Origin: Nanobdellota archaeon
GTDB taxonomy: Archaea; Nanobdellota; Nanobdellia; Woesearchaeales; GW2011-AR9
Direction of reading: 5' to 3'
DNA length: 48,543 nt
NCBI GenBank assembly: GCA_018812355.1
Contig: JAHJDQ010000182.1
Span: forward strand, 1-48,543
The translations under genes were made by a program, and so were the position numbers. Each line of letters starts with the position of its first letter. The stretch's first letter is position 1. Shown here piece by piece: positions 5,452 through 48,230 of this stretch. Below the pieces are notes generated by a model. The model did no database searches. It was not told the DNA's origin and saw nothing but the letters and a program-made list of their open reading frames with translations.

Positions 5452-6894
5452 ATGGAAGAACAAAAACATGAAATCAAACTAAAAAAAATTAATGAGTATA
5501 CATGGGAAATTCCTCAAACTGGTCAGATGAAGGTTCCTATGAGAATCTACGCTTCTGAAAAACTATTAGAGAAGATGAAAGATGATCGTACTTTAAGGCA
5601 AGCTAGTCAGATTGCCGTTCTTCCTGGAATACAACAGTATGGCTGTGTCATGCCGGATGGGCATGAAGGTTATGGTTTCCCCATTGGCGGAGTAGCAGCA
5701 TTAGATGTTGAAACAGGCGGTATTTCTCCTGGCGGAATTGGTTTTGATATTAATTGCGGTGTTCGATTATTAGCTACTAACCTCAAGAAAGAACAAATCA
5801 CTCCCAAAGTTAAACAATTACTTGATTCCTTATTCAAAAGTGTTCCTGCTGGATTAGGCAGCAGCAACATTACGGTTACTAAAGAAATTTTAGATGAAGT
5901 TCTTGATAAGGGCGCCAAGTGGGCTGTCGAGAATGGTTATGGTAATGAAGATGATCTCGCTAATTGCGAATCTAATGGTTGCATGAAGACTGCAGATGCT
6001 AGTAGTGTCTCTGACAAAGCTAAAAATCGAGGCAGAAAACAACTTGCTACTCTTGGCTCTGGAAATCATTTCTTAGAAATTCAGTATGTCGACGAAATCT
6101 TTGATAAAGAGATAGCAAAAGCTTTCGGCTTTACTGAACCTGGTCAAGTTGTTATCATGATTCACTGCGGTAGTAGAGGACTTGGCCATCAAGTTTGTTC
6201 AGATTACTTAAGAGAAATGGAACGAACCTTTCCCGAACTGTTACAAAAACTTCCCGATCGACAATTAATTTATGCTCCCGCGGGAACAAAATTATGTACA
6301 GATTATTTGCAGGCTATGTCTGCTGCAGCTAATTTTGCTTGGTGTAACCGTCATATTATTGGCCATCAAACCAGAACGGCTTTCAAGAAAGTATTTCCTG
6401 AAGTGGAAATGAAAACTGTCTATGATGTTGCCCATAACATTTGTAAAGTTGAAGAGCACGAAATCAATGGAGAAATGAAAAAAGTTTATCTGCATCGTAA
6501 AGGTGCAACAAGAGCCTTCCCACCTGGACATCCTGAATTATCAGAAACGTATCAAAAAACCGGCCAGCCAATTTTACTTCCAGGTAGTATGGGCACCGCT
6601 TCTTACGTTCTTGTTGGCACGGAAGAAGGAATGAAAACTACTTTCGGTTCTACTGCTCATGGTGCTGGAAGAGTGATGAGTAGGCATGCCGCTTTACAGC
6701 AATTTAGAGGAGAGCAGGTCAAGAAAGATTTGGAAGCACAAGGCATTTCTTTGAAATCAGCTTCCTGGAAAGGTGTGGCAGAAGAAGCACCTGGTGTGTA
6801 TAAAGACATTGAAGAAGTTGCTAAGGTATCACACGAAGTAGGCATTGGCAGGAAAGTTGTTCGGGTTAAACCAATGGGATGTATCAAAGGATGA
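5452..6894 (+). CDS. rtcB: RNA-splicing ligase RtcB (3'-phosphate/5'-hydroxyl RNA ligase)
   Basis: Full-length 480 aa with hallmark segments PDGHEGYGFPIGGV, GFDINCGVR, GSGNHF, HCGSRGLGHQV, GSMGTASY, STAHGAGR. Confidence 0.95.
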   Translation: MEEQKHEIKLKKINEYTWEIPQTGQMKVPMRIYASEKLLEKMKDDRTLRQASQIAVLPGIQQYGCVMPDGHEGYGFPIGGVAALDVETGGISPGGIGFDINCGVRLLATNLKKEQITPKVKQLLDSLFKSVPAGLGSSNITVTKEILDEVLDKGAKWAVENGYGNEDDLANCESNGCMKTADASSVSDKAKNRGRKQLATLGSGNHFLEIQYVDEIFDKEIAKAFGFTEPGQVVIMIHCGSRGLGHQVCSDYLREMERTFPELLQKLPDRQLIYAPAGTKLCTDYLQAMSAAANFAWCNRHIIGHQTRTAFKKVFPEVEMKTVYDVAHNICKVEEHEINGEMKKVYLHRKGATRAFPPGHPELSETYQKTGQPILLPGSMGTASYVLVGTEEGMKTTFGSTAHGAGRVMSRHAALQQFRGEQVKKDLEAQGISLKSASWKGVAEEAPGVYKDIEEVAKVSHEVGIGRKVVRVKPMGCIKG

Positions 6895-10724: not shown

Positions 10725-10913
10725 CCCCTCTTAGTTCAGTGGCTAGAACGCTCGGCTGTGTGGCTAAAGGTTTACCTTTAATCAGGTCAGAGATAAATTC
10801 ACTACCGGACAGAGCATTTGGCTTTGTATGAAAAGTAGATAGCCGGGACCGAGAGATCTATTAAGACTCGAAATCCCCGGTTCGAAATTCGAACGAAAGT
10901 CCGGGAGAGGGGA
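10725..10913 (+). tRNA. tRNA, anticodon read as GUG (His, tentative), with three interruptions: anticodon loop, variable loop 45/46 and T-loop 59/60
   Basis: - Acceptor CCCCTCT/AGAGGGG, D-arm GTTC-AGTGGCTA-GAAC, anticodon stem CTCGG (10751-55)/CCGAG (10849-53), loop CTGTG.
- An insert of about 86 nt at roughly 10761-10847.
- A 17-nt insert at 10856-10872 with two 3-nt bulges (AGA, AAA) separated by the 4-bp helix CGAG/CTCG.
- T-stem CCCGG/CCGGG with a 13-nt insert at 10887-10899.
- The mature length would be 73 nt. Confidence 0.65.
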
Positions 10914-10916
10914 TTT
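10893..10916 (+). repeat. Direct repeat copy 1 (ACGAAAGTCCGGGAGAGGGGATTT), covering the 3' BHB half plus the 3' exon of the tRNA
   Basis: Identical 24-mer recurs at 11672-11695. Confidence 0.9.
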
Positions 10917-10947
10917 GAAGGAAGGTGTGCGTTCTCACACTTCCTTC
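10917..10947. terminator. Hairpin between the tRNA 3' end and the convergent LAGLIDADG gene stop
   Basis: GAAGGAAGGTGTG / CACACTTCCTTC: 12 bp with one bulged G and a 6-nt loop. It overlaps the minus-strand stop codon at 10935-10937. Confidence 0.4.
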
Positions 10948-11579
10948 ACATATTTTAATAATTTTTTCTGTTTTCTTATACAGTAAAATCCAATTTTATG
11001 ATGAAAATTTGATATGTCTTTAATAGTTAATCCGTAAACATTTCTCTTACAACCAAAACCAACGACAATTACACTATCAAAATTAAAATTTTGTAGAAGT
11101 TCTTGTATCTCTTTTAATCCTTTTAAATTAATTGAATACAAACGAAGAATTGCAGTTTTTCCATAAGGAATGACACTTCCTTCGTCATCAAAAAGTGCTT
11201 TTAAAAATTCTTTTTGGATGTTTTTTGAATTATTTAAAATTTGTTTAGGAACAAACCAAACTGCGGACGCATATTCACAGTAACTCTTTAAATCTTCATA
11301 TATTAATTTTGATCTAAATCTTAGATAAGGTAAAGGAAGACCGGTTTTTCCTGAAGGTTTAAACGCTATTGTTATTTTGTATCCATAAACATCATTGAAA
11401 TCTTTAACGAATTGATTTAACAATTCAGAATCTATGTTATCGTATTTAATGTTGTAATCCGTCCGACATTTATACACACAACCATCACCTATAAGATGAG
11501 CTATCAACCTAGCTTTAGCATTAGTTAACCTCTCAAAGCCTGGTTTCAAGTTTTTTATTCTCATTTTAATCATTTCCAA
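10935..11579 (-). CDS. Double-motif LAGLIDADG homing endonuclease
   Basis: Two LAGLIDADG motifs: LIAHLIGDGCV and FLKALFDDEGSV. On its own strand a TATA-like GTTTATATAGG lies about 45 nt upstream. An 8-bp hairpin CCAATCTT/AAGATTGG sits in the leader. Confidence 0.85.
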   Translation of the reverse strand: MEMIKMRIKNLKPGFERLTNAKARLIAHLIGDGCVYKCRTDYNIKYDNIDSELLNQFVKDFNDVYGYKITIAFKPSGKTGLPLPYLRFRSKLIYEDLKSYCEYASAVWFVPKQILNNSKNIQKEFLKALFDDEGSVIPYGKTAILRLYSINLKGLKEIQELLQNFNFDSVIVVGFGCKRNVYGLTIKDISNFHHKIGFYCIRKQKKLLKYVKEV

Positions 11580-11671
11580 TCTTACACTAAGTTAAAGATT
11601 GGAGTGATTTTTATGAATTACTCCTATATAAACTCTATCCAGACTTGTCGAGTGGGTGTGTGGGTGCTAAT

Positions 11672-11695
11672 ACGAAAGTCCGGGAGAGGGGATTT
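11672..11695 (+). repeat. Direct repeat copy 2 (orphan copy of the tRNA 3' exon plus 3' BHB half)
   Basis: Identical to 10893-10916. It is followed by the T-rich tract TTCTCTTTTT. No tRNA 5' part lies upstream of it. Confidence 0.9.
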
Positions 11696-11826: not shown

Positions 11827-11930
11827 GCCCTGGTAGTGTAGTTCGGCCTAGCATGATGCCCTGTCACGGCATCGACCCGGGTTCAAAATGAGGTTGGTTA
11901 ACAATCACACTGAAAGTCCCGGCCAGGGCG
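11827..11930 (+). tRNA. tRNA-Asp (GUC) with a 29-nt BHB intron in the T-loop (59/60; 11888-11916)
   Basis: - GCCCTGG/CCAGGGC acceptor, anticodon arm ATGCC-CTGTCAC-GGCAT, T-stem CCGGG/CCCGG.
- T-loop TTCA pairs with intronic TGAA, flanked by 3-nt bulges AAA and AGT, plus an 8-bp inner helix.
- Splicing gives TTCAAAT and a 75-nt tRNA. Confidence 0.9.
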
Positions 11931-11998
11931 TTTAACAACAAGCGAGCAATCGAACTGTTCGCAAAAATGAGTGAGTAAGTATCTTACTCACAAATCAC

Positions 11999-12141
11999 GG
12001 GCCGGTAGCTCAGTTTGGTAGAGCACTTGACTTTTAAGTCAAGACAAAAACGAGCAAAAGCTTGTTTTTCTTCCCCTGGAAGAGATCAAGTGGTCGTGGG
12101 TTCAAAAGCTTAAAAAAAGCCTGAAAGTCCCTCTCGGCCCG
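11999..12141 (+). tRNA. tRNA-Lys (UUU) with a canonical 37/38 intron (12037-12084) and a T-loop 59/60 intron (12107-12127)
   Basis: - GGGCCGG/TCGGCCC acceptor (G7-U66), anticodon stem CTTGA/TCAAG, loop CTTTTA+A.
- Anticodon BHB: CTTT/GAAG helix with bulges TAA and AGA.
- T-loop BHB: TTCA/TGAA with bulges AAA and AGT and an inner helix GCTT/AAGC.
- One U-U mismatch in the T-stem. Mature length 74 nt. Confidence 0.85.
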
Positions 12142-13922: not shown

Positions 13923-15725
13923 ATGACTGACCTCTATATCAATGAACAATTTACCGGAACTGTAGATGATCCTCAATTGTTTATTGAGGATTTCAAAGAT
14001 TTACGGAGAAAGGGTACTTTACCTGAGAGTGTCAATATTTTTTTCGATGCTAAAAATAATGAATTACATTTATTTTCAGAAGCTGGAAGAGCTCAACGTC
14101 CTTTAATTATGGTTAAAGAAGGCAAGCCTTTACTAACAGAAAAACATTTAGAACAACTAACTAATGGTGAGATTACTTGGGTTGATTTGGTTCGGCAAGG
14201 TGTGGTAGAATATTTAGACGCAGCCGAGGAAGAGAATGCTTTAGTTGCTTACCTCGAAACAGAACTTACTCCTGATCATACCCATTTAGAAGTAACCCCT
14301 GGCTCAATTAGTGGGATTACTACTGCTTTAGTTCCTTTTGGTAATTATAATCAATCATCTCGGTTGATTATTGGAAGTAAAAACCAAAAACAAGCACTTG
14401 GCTTTTATGCTGCAAATTATCATTTAAGAATGGACATGGATTCAAACATTTTACATTATCCTCAATTCCCGCTGGTTAAAACTAAAGTGCACGAAGTAAT
14501 TGATTATGATGAACATCCAGCTGGACAGAACTTTATTGTTGCGATTATGTGTTATGATGGTTATAACATGGAAGATGGAGTTATCTTAAACAAATCATCG
14601 ATTGAAATGGGTTTAGCTAGAAGTACCTATTACCGTCCTGTAAATGCTGAAGAGTTACGTTATTCTGGCGGATTAGTGGATGAGGTTTCCGTACCAGATA
14701 AAGATGTTAAAGGTTATAAAAGCGAACACGATTATCGTTTTTTGGAAGGGGACGGAATTATTTATCCAGAAGCAAAAGTTACTGAAGGCGATGTTGTTAT
14801 TGGAAGAACTTCTCCTCCACGATTCCTGAGCAGTTTAGATGAATATAATTTAACAGCAGCTGTAAGAAGGGAAAGTTCTCTTTCTCTTAAACATGGTGAA
14901 TCAGGAGTTGCTGACTTTGTTGTCCTTACTGAAAATGAAGAAGGAAATAAACTAGTTCAAGTAAGATTAAGAGCAGAAAGAATTCCTGAAATTGGTGATA
15001 AATTTACTTCCCGTCATGGACAGAAAGGAGTCATGGGAATGGTCGTACCTAACGAAGATATTCCTTTTTCTTCTTCCGGAATTGTTCCTGACATGATCTT
15101 CACTCCCCACGGTATCTCTTCAAGAATGACTGTCTCGCATTTAATTGAACTAATTGGTGGAAAAATCGGCGCCCTCTCTGGAAGATTTGTTGACGGCACT
15201 TTATTTGAAGCGGAAACAGAACCGGATTTAAGAAAGGAATTATTATCTCTCGGATTTAGAGAAGATGGTCGAGAAACATTCTATGATGGAAGAACAGGAA
15301 AACAAATGCTGGCAAAGATTTATGTTGGAAACATGTACTATTTAAGATTAAGACACATGGTTGCTAACAAAATTCAATCCAGGGCCAGAGGACCGATCCA
15401 ATTATTAACTAGGCAACCGACTGAAGGAAAGGCTAAAGAAGGCGGATTAAGATTAGGAGAGATGGAAAAAGATACTTTTGTTGCTCACGGAGCTTCGTTA
15501 TTACTTAAAGAACGGTTTGACTCTGATAAAATTGTCTTACCAATTTGTGAACAATGTGGCTTAGTTGCCGTCGAGGACCATTACAAAAACAGAAAGTATT
15601 GTTTAATGTGTGGTGAAGATATCAAAATCAATAATGTTGAGATGAGTTACGCATTCAAATTGCTGATGGACGAGTTTAGAAGTCTGGGAGTTTATCCAAA
15701 ATTAAATTTAAAAACAAAATATTAA
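13923..15725 (+). CDS. rpoB1: DNA-directed RNA polymerase subunit B' (C-terminal part of split subunit B)
   Basis: GYNMEDGVILNKSS, FTSRHGQKGV, MIFTPHGISSRMTVSHL, GGLRLGEMEKD and a C-terminal Zn ribbon CEQCG...CLMCG. Confidence 0.95.
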   Translation: MTDLYINEQFTGTVDDPQLFIEDFKDLRRKGTLPESVNIFFDAKNNELHLFSEAGRAQRPLIMVKEGKPLLTEKHLEQLTNGEITWVDLVRQGVVEYLDAAEEENALVAYLETELTPDHTHLEVTPGSISGITTALVPFGNYNQSSRLIIGSKNQKQALGFYAANYHLRMDMDSNILHYPQFPLVKTKVHEVIDYDEHPAGQNFIVAIMCYDGYNMEDGVILNKSSIEMGLARSTYYRPVNAEELRYSGGLVDEVSVPDKDVKGYKSEHDYRFLEGDGIIYPEAKVTEGDVVIGRTSPPRFLSSLDEYNLTAAVRRESSLSLKHGESGVADFVVLTENEEGNKLVQVRLRAERIPEIGDKFTSRHGQKGVMGMVVPNEDIPFSSSGIVPDMIFTPHGISSRMTVSHLIELIGGKIGALSGRFVDGTLFEAETEPDLRKELLSLGFREDGRETFYDGRTGKQMLAKIYVGNMYYLRLRHMVANKIQSRARGPIQLLTRQPTEGKAKEGGLRLGEMEKDTFVAHGASLLLKERFDSDKIVLPICEQCGLVAVEDHYKNRKYCLMCGEDIKINNVEMSYAFKLLMDEFRSLGVYPKLNLKTKY

Positions 15726-31792: not shown

Positions 31793-32731
31793 TCAAAGTC
31801 CTCTATAAAAAGTTTCCATCAATTCTTTTATTTCCTTGACAGTTTTAGTAGGGATTAAATCTCCACGAAGTTTTTTTCCGCCACGGCAACCTTTAGAAAA
31901 GTTCATTGCTTGCATTCTAATGTTTGCTGGCCGAATAGACTGATATTTCTCTGCATACTTCAAATATTTAAAAAAATATTTGATTTTTGTTTTTGCAGAA
32001 ATCTCCTTATATTTTCCAGTTTTCAAATAATCGTTAATTTGTTTAAAAATAAACGGATTAGTCATTGCTCCTCTTCCAATCATCACATAATCACAGCCAG
32101 TTTCTTGTAACATTCTTTGCGCATCTTCAGGAGTTTTAATATCTCCATTCCCTACAACAGGAATTTTTACTAACTGTTTTAATTCCTTAATTAACTTCCA
32201 ATCAGCTTTTCCAGAATAGCCTTGCTTGACAGTCCGAGGATGGAAAATGATCATCTCTATCCCCTCTTCTTCTGCTATCTTAGCAATAATTTTCCATCGA
32301 TTGGGTTTATTCACTCCAGATCTTATCTTGACAGAGATTGGTTTATTTGTCGCTTTCCTCATTGTTTGAAAAATCTTTCTCGTCAGTTCTGGCTTTTGTA
32401 ATAAGGCAGAACAAGCCATTTGTTCAGTAATTTGCGGAGAAGGACAACCCATATTATAATCAATCATATCAAAATGAGGTTCAACAATTTTAATCGCCTC
32501 TTTTAACGTTTTTAAATCTGAACCAAATAACTGAATAGAAACTGGTTTTTCTTTTGGAGAGAATTCTACAAACTTAGTAATGTCATCTTTTTTAGCAATA
32601 ATCGCATGAATATTAACAAATTCAGTTACTACTAAACCTGCACCTAGTTCTTTACACAACAAACGTAAAGCAACATTACTTACTCCTGACATCGGTGCTA
32701 AGAACGCTTTGGAAGTGAATTTTGGTAACAT
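31793..32731 (-). CDS. tRNA-dihydrouridine synthase
   Basis: FLAPMSGVSNVALRLLCKELGAGLVVTEF, DYNMGCP, VSVKIRSG, and IGRGAMTNPFIF. I trimmed the start to ATG 32731, because a TATA-like CTTTTTATATCCC on the minus strand is centred about 27 nt upstream and the track's extension overlaps a tRNA gene. Confidence 0.85.
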   Translation of the reverse strand: MLPKFTSKAFLAPMSGVSNVALRLLCKELGAGLVVTEFVNIHAIIAKKDDITKFVEFSPKEKPVSIQLFGSDLKTLKEAIKIVEPHFDMIDYNMGCPSPQITEQMACSALLQKPELTRKIFQTMRKATNKPISVKIRSGVNKPNRWKIIAKIAEEEGIEMIIFHPRTVKQGYSGKADWKLIKELKQLVKIPVVGNGDIKTPEDAQRMLQETGCDYVMIGRGAMTNPFIFKQINDYLKTGKYKEISAKTKIKYFFKYLKYAEKYQSIRPANIRMQAMNFSKGCRGGKKLRGDLIPTKTVKEIKELMETFYRGL

Positions 32732-32787
32732 TGGGTAAAGAAAATATTGGGATATAAAAAGTTGTGTGTTAGTTTTCAAATAAATAA

Positions 32788-32916
32788 TGAGCCCTAGGGG
32801 AGAGTCGATGCTCCGCATCTCGTTCTGTTCTTGCAAAACATATTCGAACCCCCGACCCCTTGGTAACTCTTAATTATTAAGAGCCAAGTGCTCTAGCCAG
32901 ACTGAGCTAAGGGCCC
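32788..32916 (-). tRNA. tRNA-Lys (CUU) with a 13-nt 37/38 intron (32865-32877) and a 41-nt T-loop 59/60 intron (32802-32842)
   Basis: - Minus-strand read: GGGCCCT-TA-GCTC-AGTCTGGCTA-GAGC-A-CTTGG-CTCTTA[ATAATTAAGAGTT]A-CCAAG-GGGTC-GGGGG-TTCGAA[41 nt]T-CCCCT-AGGGCTC-A.
- Anticodon BHB: CTCT/AGAG with bulges TAA and TTA.
- T-loop BHB has a 9-bp inner helix (3 G-U pairs). Mature length 75 nt. Confidence 0.85.
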
Positions 32917-46768: not shown

Positions 46769-47584
46769 TTAATAAAGGTTATCATGCGGACTGACTACAT
46801 TATGTAAATGAACATTACTCACCCGAGCATATTGTTGTGTTGTTTTAATGTTCTTATGCCCAAGTAATTTCTGAATTACCGGAAACTCTACTTTATGGTC
46901 AAGTAAATGCGTGGCAAACGAATGTCTTAAGATGTGAGGAGTTACAGTCTTACTTATTCGTGCTTTAGTAGCAGCTTGCTTTAAAACTTCTTGTACTGTT
47001 CGAACAGAAATATGACTATTACTATAAGATCCAAATAAATAACCATTCTGGTAATATTTACTTTTAACATATTCCTCAATCATCCCCATCACTTTATCTG
47101 AAAGAATGGTATATCTGTCTTTATTGCCTTTACCTTGCTTTACTAATAACCTTCTTCTCCCAAAATCAAAATGTTCTAATTTAATTTTTACTAATTCGGA
47201 AACTCTTATTCCCGTAGCGTACAATAATGAGATCATCAATTTATGTTTAACATTTTCAGTAACATCAATCAATCTCTTAATCTCTTCTTGAGATAAAATT
47301 TCTTTAACTGTATCTTCCCGCTTTTGATAAGGTAAATCAGTAAACTTACGTTTCATGATCTTAACATAATAAAAATTCAAGGCATTATGGGCTAAATTAA
47401 TCTGTGAACTGGAAGCTCTTTTAGATTCTAAATACAACAAATACTGACGAACATCAGAACGACAAACTTCCTGCGGCTTCTTTCTACAAAAATTAATAAA
47501 TTTCTGATTATAATATAAATAATTCTTGATTGTCTTTGGAGAATAATTTCTTAACTTACATTCTTCAATTAACGGTTCAAACAT
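46769..47584 (-). CDS. Tyrosine recombinase, XerC/XerD/integrase family
   Basis: ATGIRVSEL (Arg), KGNKDR, HILRHSFATHLL (HxxR) and LLGHKNIKTTQQYARV (His, Tyr). Start placed at ATG 47584, with GGAGGG 7 nt upstream. Overlaps the upstream gene by 8 nt. Confidence 0.85.
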   Translation of the reverse strand: MFEPLIEECKLRNYSPKTIKNYLYYNQKFINFCRKKPQEVCRSDVRQYLLYLESKRASSSQINLAHNALNFYYVKIMKRKFTDLPYQKREDTVKEILSQEEIKRLIDVTENVKHKLMISLLYATGIRVSELVKIKLEHFDFGRRRLLVKQGKGNKDRYTILSDKVMGMIEEYVKSKYYQNGYLFGSYSNSHISVRTVQEVLKQAATKARISKTVTPHILRHSFATHLLDHKVEFPVIQKLLGHKNIKTTQQYARVSNVHLHNVVSPHDNLY

Positions 47585-47909
47585 TTTCATTCCCTCCGTT
47601 CCATTTATGCCAACCTTGGTTATTGTCATAATTTCCTTCACTATTTTTTCTTTTTGGGAATAAACTCCCTCCAGATTTGTGTTGTCCATAAGCAAGTTTA
47701 GCAAAACATTTCTTACATTTTAATTCATAGAAATCATTTCTGTCAACAGTTCTTACCACAAATTGTAACTCTTCATTATGACAAAGTTGACAAGAATCTT
47801 CATCAAACACTTCCTGAAAAATAGCCAGTTCTTTGAACGCATCCTTAACTGAATCAGAGTTAATCTCAACATTTAAGCGTTGGTTTTTTGTTGTGTAGTT
47901 TATTTTCAT
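47577..47909 (-). CDS. Zinc-ribbon protein (CxxC...CxxC), possibly mobile-element associated
   Basis: CQLCHNEELQFV...YELKCKKCFAKLAYGQHKSGGSLFPKR. GAGGTGA lies 5 nt upstream. It is translationally coupled to the recombinase gene. Confidence 0.55.
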   Translation of the reverse strand: MKINYTTKNQRLNVEINSDSVKDAFKELAIFQEVFDEDSCQLCHNEELQFVVRTVDRNDFYELKCKKCFAKLAYGQHKSGGSLFPKRKNSEGNYDNNQGWHKWNGGNENV

Positions 47910-48230
47910 ATTATCACCTCAGTTTTTTAATTTCTAAACCCGTCGAATTCGGGGGAATTAAAAAATATAATGTTTCATTTATTTACACATAAAAATTACT
48001 TTATAACCTTTACCCGCACTTGTCCAGTGGGTAGTGGCTCGGTAAATTAACATTATTAGAGCTTCTCTCTTAAAAATTTTCTAGAATTAGCGTTTCTTAG
48101 TAGTTGTCCAGTGGCTTACCTCATAATTGATTTTTTTGGGACTGGGGAGCTATATTATAATTTTCTACAAAGTACCAAATCAAATAAACACCCTGCGCCA
48201 ATATTGGCAAAAAATTAAGAGGTGTCTAAA

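Follow-up and report, generated by a model that had tools for sequence, protein, structure and literature searches.

Nucleotides 59 and 60 of the T-loop flank a known non-canonical intron site in tRNA genes of Crenarchaeota and Nanoarchaeota (Marck & Grosjean 2003; Sugahara 2008; reviewed in PMC4090602). Large-scale transposition of tRNA introns has been described for the Thermoproteales (Fujishima 2010, as summarised in PMC4090602). For DPANN archaea, an alpha4-type EndA has been tied to heavier disruption of tRNA genes, broad specificity being ascribed to an 'L3' loop (Kaneta 2018, PMC5829648). A census of Asgard archaea found introns clustered at the canonical site and in the T-arm, the T-arm inserts having mostly canonical motifs (bioRxiv 10.64898/2026.10.13.758758).

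Here we analyse 48,543 nucleotides of a Woesearchaeales genome (the window, contig C111). The metagenome-assembled genome comprises 1.60 Mb in 213 contigs with 33.5% G+C, and its completeness and contamination are estimated at 91.9% and 5.1%. All four tRNA genes of the window carry an insert at 59/60. We read these inserts, with a probability of about 0.9, as genuine archaeal bulge-helix-bulge (BHB) introns at a non-canonical position, members of a class that is abundant in Woesearchaeales, has been gained and lost, and has spread between genes. The original prediction had noted that non-canonical intron positions are known in some archaeal lineages, and 59/60 is indeed listed in PMC4090602. 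Our literature search found no published description of the 59/60 pattern in Woesearchaeota. Both the position and intron transposition have already been described in other archaea; the Woesearchaeota occurrence is a new instance.

Results and discussion

The tRNA genes of the window

The tRNA-Asp(GUC) gene (11827-11930, plus strand) contains a T-loop intron of 29 nt (11888-11916). In the tRNA-Lys(UUU) gene (11999-12141, plus strand) a T-loop intron of 21 nt (12107-12127) accompanies a canonical 37/38 intron of 48 nt (12037-12084), and the tRNA-Lys(CUU) gene (32788-32916, minus strand) likewise combines a T-loop intron of 41 nt (32802-32842) with a canonical intron of 13 nt (32865-32877). The fourth gene, tRNA-Tyr (10725-10913, plus strand; C1-G72, A73), has several interruptions, among them a 13-nt T-loop intron (10887-10899, plus strand, ATTCGAACGAAAG). 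All four inserts lie exactly between nucleotides 59 and 60, as originally predicted, and their excision restores a TTCRAAT loop in every gene.

The window as it stands gives no match to Rfam at the gathering score, and aragorn recovers just one mis-ended tRNA-Asp. Every candidate was spliced in silico between nucleotides 59 and 60 and aragorn was rerun; all four genes then yielded valid canonical cloverleaves. They are the sole Asp, Lys(UUU), Lys(CUU) and Tyr genes in the 92%-complete assembly and must therefore yield working tRNAs. We note that a Dus (dihydrouridine synthase) gene, a tRNA-modification gene, directly follows tRNA-Lys(CUU) on the same strand (31793-32836, minus). Its longest frame overlaps the 3′ part of the tRNA gene; the Pfam match begins at residue 46, so the true start is probably downstream of tRNA-Lys(CUU).

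Junction geometry

The central helices are TTCG/CGAA in Tyr, TTCA/TGAA in both Asp and Lys(UUU), and TTCG/CGAC, with three of four pairs, in Lys(CUU). The 5′ bulge is AAA in Tyr, Asp and Lys(UUU) and AAT in Lys(CUU); the 3′ bulge is AGT in the first three and TCT in the last. These assignments agree in full with the original prediction, as do the inner helices of Lys(UUU) (4 bp) and Lys(CUU) (9 bp, including three G-U pairs) and the absence of one from Tyr. The Asp inner helix, put earlier at 8 bp, is closer to 7 bp with one mismatch and a 1-nt offset. In the minimum-energy fold of the Asp intron, (((((((((...inner...))))...))))), this helix is displaced by one unpaired nucleotide. The Tyr insert forms a bulge-helix-loop and falls short of a full BHB. 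When relaxed forms are allowed, the hBHBh′ motif of 3-nt bulges, a 4-bp helix and flanking helices is found, and Lys(UUU) has it in the strict form. The Lys(UUU) T-stem contains a U50-U64 mismatch. For Lys(CUU), the minimum-energy fold favours a register shifted by one, TCGA/TCGA. This register would give a T-loop of 9 nt, and the register first proposed is therefore the biologically sensible one.

The canonical introns of the two Lys genes can be read directly from the sequence. In Lys(CUU), nucleotides 32-35 (CTCT) form all four pairs with AGAG of the intron, with bulges TAA and TTA; in Lys(UUU), nucleotides 32-35 (CTTT) pair with GAAG at intron positions -6 to -3. In both genes the splice sites of the canonical intron fall within 3-nt bulges, in the layout seen in the T-loop inserts. 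The T-arm and the anticodon arm are alike in outline, each with a 5-bp stem and a 7-nt loop, and 59/60 separates the sixth and seventh loop nucleotides just as 37/38 does.

The geometry suggests the following model. In the precursor, the 5-bp T-stem would serve as the outer helix and T-loop nucleotides 54-57 would pair with intron positions -6 to -3, giving the 4-bp central helix. The splice sites would sit in two 3-nt bulges, one made of nucleotides 58, 59 and the first intron nucleotide, the other of the last two intron nucleotides and nucleotide 60. The T-loop layout would then match the canonical 37/38 layout nucleotide for nucleotide, the intron following the sixth loop nucleotide and 54-57 taking the place of 32-35. 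Cleavage at both bulges would fall to the one alpha4-like EndA of the genome, and ligation of the exons by RtcB would then restore TTCRAAT. In this model, excision and the exact junctions are predictions from sequence.

The tRNA-Tyr gene and the neighbouring endonuclease gene

The gene at 10725-10913 is labelled His(GTG) by aragorn, GTG being found at the raw anticodon position. Its acceptor (C1-G72, A73) and its location fit the tRNA-Tyr orthologues that lie upstream of rpoB in relatives. Where these orthologues have just one intron, the canonical one, they read CTGTAG and the call is Tyr(GTA). The gene of the window becomes Tyr(GTA) only with a four-intron splice (~10758-10834, 10839-10847, ~10857-10873 and 10887-10899). 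Judged by sequence and setting, we assign it as the tRNA-Tyr orthologue. Between 10758 and 10873, the change from GTG to GTA needs the loss of two introns on either side of a very short exon, and the variable region is interrupted as well, by 17 nt. The tRNA-Tyr gene of related locus L043 is organised in the same way, its region being 86 nt and its variable-region insert 19 nt long. Inserts of 14-15 nt occur at the same T-loop site in the Tyr orthologues of L051, L052 and L061, and other orthologues have none.

Convergent with tRNA-Tyr is a free-standing LAGLIDADG homing-endonuclease gene (10935-11579, minus strand). Two copies of a 24-nt repeat flank it, at 10893-10916 and 11672-11695, the first of them beginning within the Tyr T-loop intron. 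For Tyr only, this raises the question of whether the distal copy at 11672-11695 could be the functional 3′ exon, either at the end of a 792-nt T-loop intron holding the antisense endonuclease gene or as a piece joined in trans like split tRNAs. The distal copy reproduces CGAAAG|TCCGGGAGAGGGGA exactly and satisfies the T-stem, central-helix and acceptor tests (L = 792) as the proximal copy does; moreover, in a second cassette, on contig C157, 20 nt from the 3′ end of a tRNA are similarly present twice. The proximal copy, however, already completes the gene and is followed by a hairpin and a T-run, and Tyr orthologues without the endonuclease gene bear T-loop introns of 14-19 nt. At L043 and L007 the same endonuclease gene is present and the distal copy is absent. 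The TATA box adjoining the distal copy fits the consensus in the direction of the endonuclease gene, and neither an inner helix nor a complementary leader was seen at the distal copy. We consider use of the distal copy improbable, in the split-tRNA version too. A 13-nt intron ending at the proximal copy is thus our preferred reading of the Tyr gene.

The conserved sequence upstream of the distal copy was considered as an element terminus and rejected, as it also occurs before integrase-like, methyltransferase and other genes. It takes the form of a promoter-upstream motif, (G)ACCCACTCA-CCCACTSGACAAGT-N-GGRTAGAG-TTTATATA, found in the window at 11625-11656 and 48000-48031 (both minus strand) and at 15 more sites in the genome. 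The motif precedes LAGLIDADG, integrase-like (for example window 46769-47704, minus strand), DNA methyltransferase-like and other genes, and is possibly an operator or promoter that mobile or defence genes have in common.

The endonuclease gene has counterparts elsewhere in the genome. Free-standing LAGLIDADG_3 genes of 210-276 aa lie at or over the ends of six tRNA genes: Arg-CCT, His, Arg-TCG, Asn, Pro-GGG and Tyr. The genes concerned are C157:14445-15170(-), C55:3249-4055(-), C141:14253-14993(-), C27:2658-3290(+), C99:11419-12249(-) and that of the window. Several of the reading frames extend into tRNA sequence. At least six such adjacencies among about 45 tRNA genes in 1.6 Mb is far above chance. 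On contig C157, a 20-nt direct repeat of the tRNA-Arg(CCT) 3′ end, CCCGTGGGGCCATTCATTTT, running from T-stem nucleotide 62 (14496-14515 and 15366-15385), flanks the antisense LAGLIDADG gene in a cassette built like that of the window. The two cassettes also have in common a 5′-UTR hairpin, CTCCAATCTT...AAGATTGGAG.

The window inserts do not have the I-DmoI-type arrangement, in which the intron encodes a sense endonuclease; they are 13-41 nt long, and the nearby LAGLIDADG gene is antisense and outside the proximal gene. In the genome as a whole, a T-loop intron is present in one of the six endonuclease-adjacent tRNA genes and an endonuclease gene stands beside one of the 16 genes with a T-loop intron, no LAGLIDADG match being found near the other 15. 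At L043 and L007 the Tyr-linked endonuclease gene is present and the T-loop intron absent. Given this rare co-occurrence and these two loci, co-mobility of T-loop introns and homing endonucleases is unsupported.

Comparison with related loci

We analysed 80 related Woesearchaeota loci with the same pipeline, in which intron-exon pairing was not a criterion. The gene order tRNA-Tyr ... tRNA-Asp - tRNA-Lys(UUU) - rpoH - rpoB is conserved. A 59/60 insert is present in 136 of the 233 tRNA genes and absent from 97; insert lengths run from 14 to 199 nt (median 36). By aragorn label, the insert is found in 31 Asp orthologues and missing from 11; the corresponding numbers are 19 and 28 for Lys(UUU) and 31 and 15 for Tyr. 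Orthologues that lack the insert at exactly the same junction were thus found.

The pairing of nucleotides 54-57 with intron positions -6 to -3 was scored in the predicted register for all 136 inserts. All four pairs form in 89 inserts and three of four in a further 41, so that at least three pairs are present in 130 of the 136. When the partner is slid by 1-3 nt, at most three inserts keep all four pairs. On the exon side of the central helix nucleotide 57 alone varies, and its partner tracks it (A:T 72, A:C 5, G:C 30, G:T 9; Fisher p = 7.5e-15, not corrected for phylogeny). The commonest 3′ bulges among these inserts are AGT (70), AAT (24) and TGT (21); the 5′ bulge is AAN in 127 and AGN or ACN in the other nine. 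The outer helix, central helix and 3′ bulge occur together in the minimum-energy fold of 55 of the 136 inserts and in none of 408 shuffled introns. The inner helix is less regular. It directly abuts the bulges in only about 20-28% of the related introns, many of which are therefore relaxed motifs. A strict test, requiring contiguous pairs after the bulges and at least 3 bp, gave 20% as against 5.5% for shuffled introns, a weak signal; for the class as a whole, we make no claim to a strict hBHBh′ motif.

These data also bear on the idea that the inserts simply stay in, the genes being pseudogenes or the tRNAs having expanded T-loops. Standard tools do not call the insert-bearing tRNA genes of the window, which might be taken in its favour. 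The only Asp, Lys and Tyr genes of the assembly are, however, those with inserts, and their exons are conserved while the inserts differ in length and sequence and are precisely missing in some orthologues. The inserts keep the splicing motif in one register, and established tRNA structure implies that an expanded T-loop would ruin the T-loop/D-loop elbow. Retention of the inserts appears highly improbable on this evidence. The suspicion that the inserts are assembly or binning artefacts, which a single metagenome-assembled genome of 213 contigs with 5% estimated contamination might invite, is refuted by inserts of the same kind at the same position in independent assemblies from many studies.

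The original reading of the inserts as BHB introns at 59/60 with a covarying central helix is therefore supported by in-silico splicing, by presence and absence among orthologues, by the register and covariation statistics, and by the EndA and RtcB genes described below. Against it we weighed the inner helix, which does not abut the bulges in most relatives and is lacking in Tyr, the mismatch and shifted-register fold of Lys(CUU), and a sole EndA that is alpha4-like.

Extent within the genome and the phylum

In the genome of the window a 59/60 intron was identified in 16 tRNA genes and was absent from 17, these being the tRNA genes recovered, an incomplete set. The original prediction of a genome-wide, lineage-specific spread is upheld in its breadth, the inserts extending beyond the loci of the window, and fails as to uniformity. 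With 16 genes against 17, the four out of four of the window departs only slightly from expectation. Two tRNA-Gly(CCC) genes of this genome (C96:2859-2929 and C106:6489-6559) have identical Rfam scores and may represent a duplication or assembly redundancy.

For the phylum we searched 201 genomes with a narrow pattern, GGTTCRAA-N8-38-GAAAGTCC, which catches 7 of the 16 introns known in the genome of the window. Matches were obtained in 21 of 23 genomes of the same family (mean 3.8 matches), 67 of 131 from other families of the order and 16 of 47 from other orders of the class, or 104 of 201 in all. The motif is thus strongest in its own family; elsewhere in the order about half of the genomes have it, and in other orders of the class about a third. 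A reversed-pattern control over the 201 genomes gave about 18 matches in total, compared with several hundred for the true pattern. This near-empty control and the concentration of pairing in the predicted register argue that the motif is more than chance.

EndA and RtcB

The genome has one EndA gene (contig C76, 228 aa), which contains the N- and C-terminal Pfam domains and whose catalytic Tyr, His and Lys align with those of M. jannaschii EndA. About 55 residues at its N-terminus form a Lys-rich extension. Alignments with M. jannaschii alpha4 and with the alpha subunit of N. equitans both run from end to end. The protein is without the 6-residue insert of the N. equitans subunit, and its alignment with M. 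jannaschii alpha4 has no gap at that place. A search of the 92%-complete assembly at E <= 10 gave no second EndA homologue. A broad-specificity EndA, of the alpha-beta or epsilon type, had been expected; this expectation was not borne out, the 92%-complete assembly having the single alpha4-like gene and neither a beta subunit nor a three-unit fusion. Alpha4 EndAs are classically held to be strict. That many non-canonical, partly relaxed motifs coexist with a single alpha4-like EndA is relevant to the idea that such introns are processed by alpha-beta and epsilon enzymes alone.

An RtcB RNA ligase gene lies in the window itself (5452-6894, plus strand; PF01139, 574 bits, match 5599-6891), with a second copy on contig C91. 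RtcB would be the candidate for joining the exons of the window tRNAs.

Spread between tRNA genes

Near-identical T-loop introns are found in different tRNA genes of one genome: in four genes of G121 (TATC..AGGGAGACTACAAATCTTCCTGAAGATT), in six of G097 and in six of G130, the overall range being four to seven per genome. An intron family of the G121 type also occurs in three genes of the genome of the window (on C105, at C157:4354 and at C197:2769), and at related locus L026 a structured T-loop intron of about 80 nt is common to tRNA-Ile and tRNA-Tyr. Such copies within single genomes indicate that T-loop introns proliferate. The four window introns have no paralogue in their own genome; orthologous relatives of the Asp intron are present in G034 and G097. 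The search for a common ancestor of the introns, which had been suggested as a check, is accordingly answered in part: near-identical copies in non-orthologous genes exist (in G121, G097, G130, the genome of the window and L026), and the four window introns are not among them.

The L026 introns gave no match to an Rfam family, even at permissive E-values. Across genera, tRNA-Ile, tRNA-Tyr and other tRNA genes contain G+C-rich, apparently structured T-loop introns of 66-91 nt with the motifs CTAGGCGAACG and GGCGGG..CCCACCA/CCCACGA. Examples are L026:718-923, L026:3075-3279, L022:1114-1322, L006:697-891, L029:408-611 and, in the genome of the window, C26:13893-14112.

One could go further and regard the 59/60 introns as a class of non-autonomous mobile element whose landing site is the near-universal T-arm sequence GGTTCRAAT-CC. 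A mobile class with this target would account both for insertion at one and the same nucleotide in dozens of unrelated tRNA genes and for the four to seven near-identical copies in single genomes; we offer it as a speculative extension that is, on balance, unlikely. Two routes are possible. Along an RNA route, the EndA/RtcB reaction would run backwards and insert the intron into a T-arm resembling the anticodon arm, and reverse transcription would follow. Along a DNA route, transfer would be promoted in trans by the tRNA-abutting LAGLIDADG endonucleases, the intron splitting the target of the enzyme. For the RNA route, a reverse-transcriptase gene is present in the genome (RVT_1; C9:2657-3034, minus strand), in a frame of 406 aa; it may be part of a group II intron or of a diversity-generating retroelement.

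Comparison with known systems

With standard finders, no more than 11-18 tRNAs emerge from this 92%-complete genome, and Asp, Lys and Tyr look missing unless 59/60 introns are modelled. Statements on Woesearchaeota completeness and coding capacity that are based on tRNAs are therefore biased by introns that hide tRNAs from view. The intron families at identical positions within genomes, for their part, add a second lineage to the Thermoproteales for studies of how BHB introns spread.

The introns described here agree with the 59/60 introns of Crenarchaeota and Nanoarchaeota in position, in their BHB or relaxed motif, in the EndA/RtcB pathway to which we assign them, and in the frequent presence of a canonical intron in the same gene. 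They differ in their host, Woesearchaeales of the DPANN, and in affecting about half of the identified tRNA genes. The enzymes differ as well: the sole EndA here is alpha4-like, whereas that of Crenarchaeota is alpha-beta with a Crenarchaea-specific loop. As in the DPANN genomes of Kaneta 2018, a single EndA of alpha4 length is accompanied by many disrupted tRNA genes, and standard predictors miss the full tRNA set. That study ascribes broad specificity to the L3 loop; an insert of this kind could not be shown for the enzyme of this genome, whose alignment with M. jannaschii alpha4 has no gap where N. equitans has 6 extra residues. The concentration of introns in the T-arm is similar to that in Asgard archaea, which belong to a different superphylum and whose census does not include DPANN. 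In mode of spread there is a likeness with the Thermoproteales: there, as in G121, G097, G130 and the genome of the window, very similar introns occupy non-orthologous tRNA genes of one genome. Unlike in the Thermoproteales, every copy examined here is at 59/60, the one position searched, and the four window introns, unlike members of such families, stand without a paralogue in their own genome.
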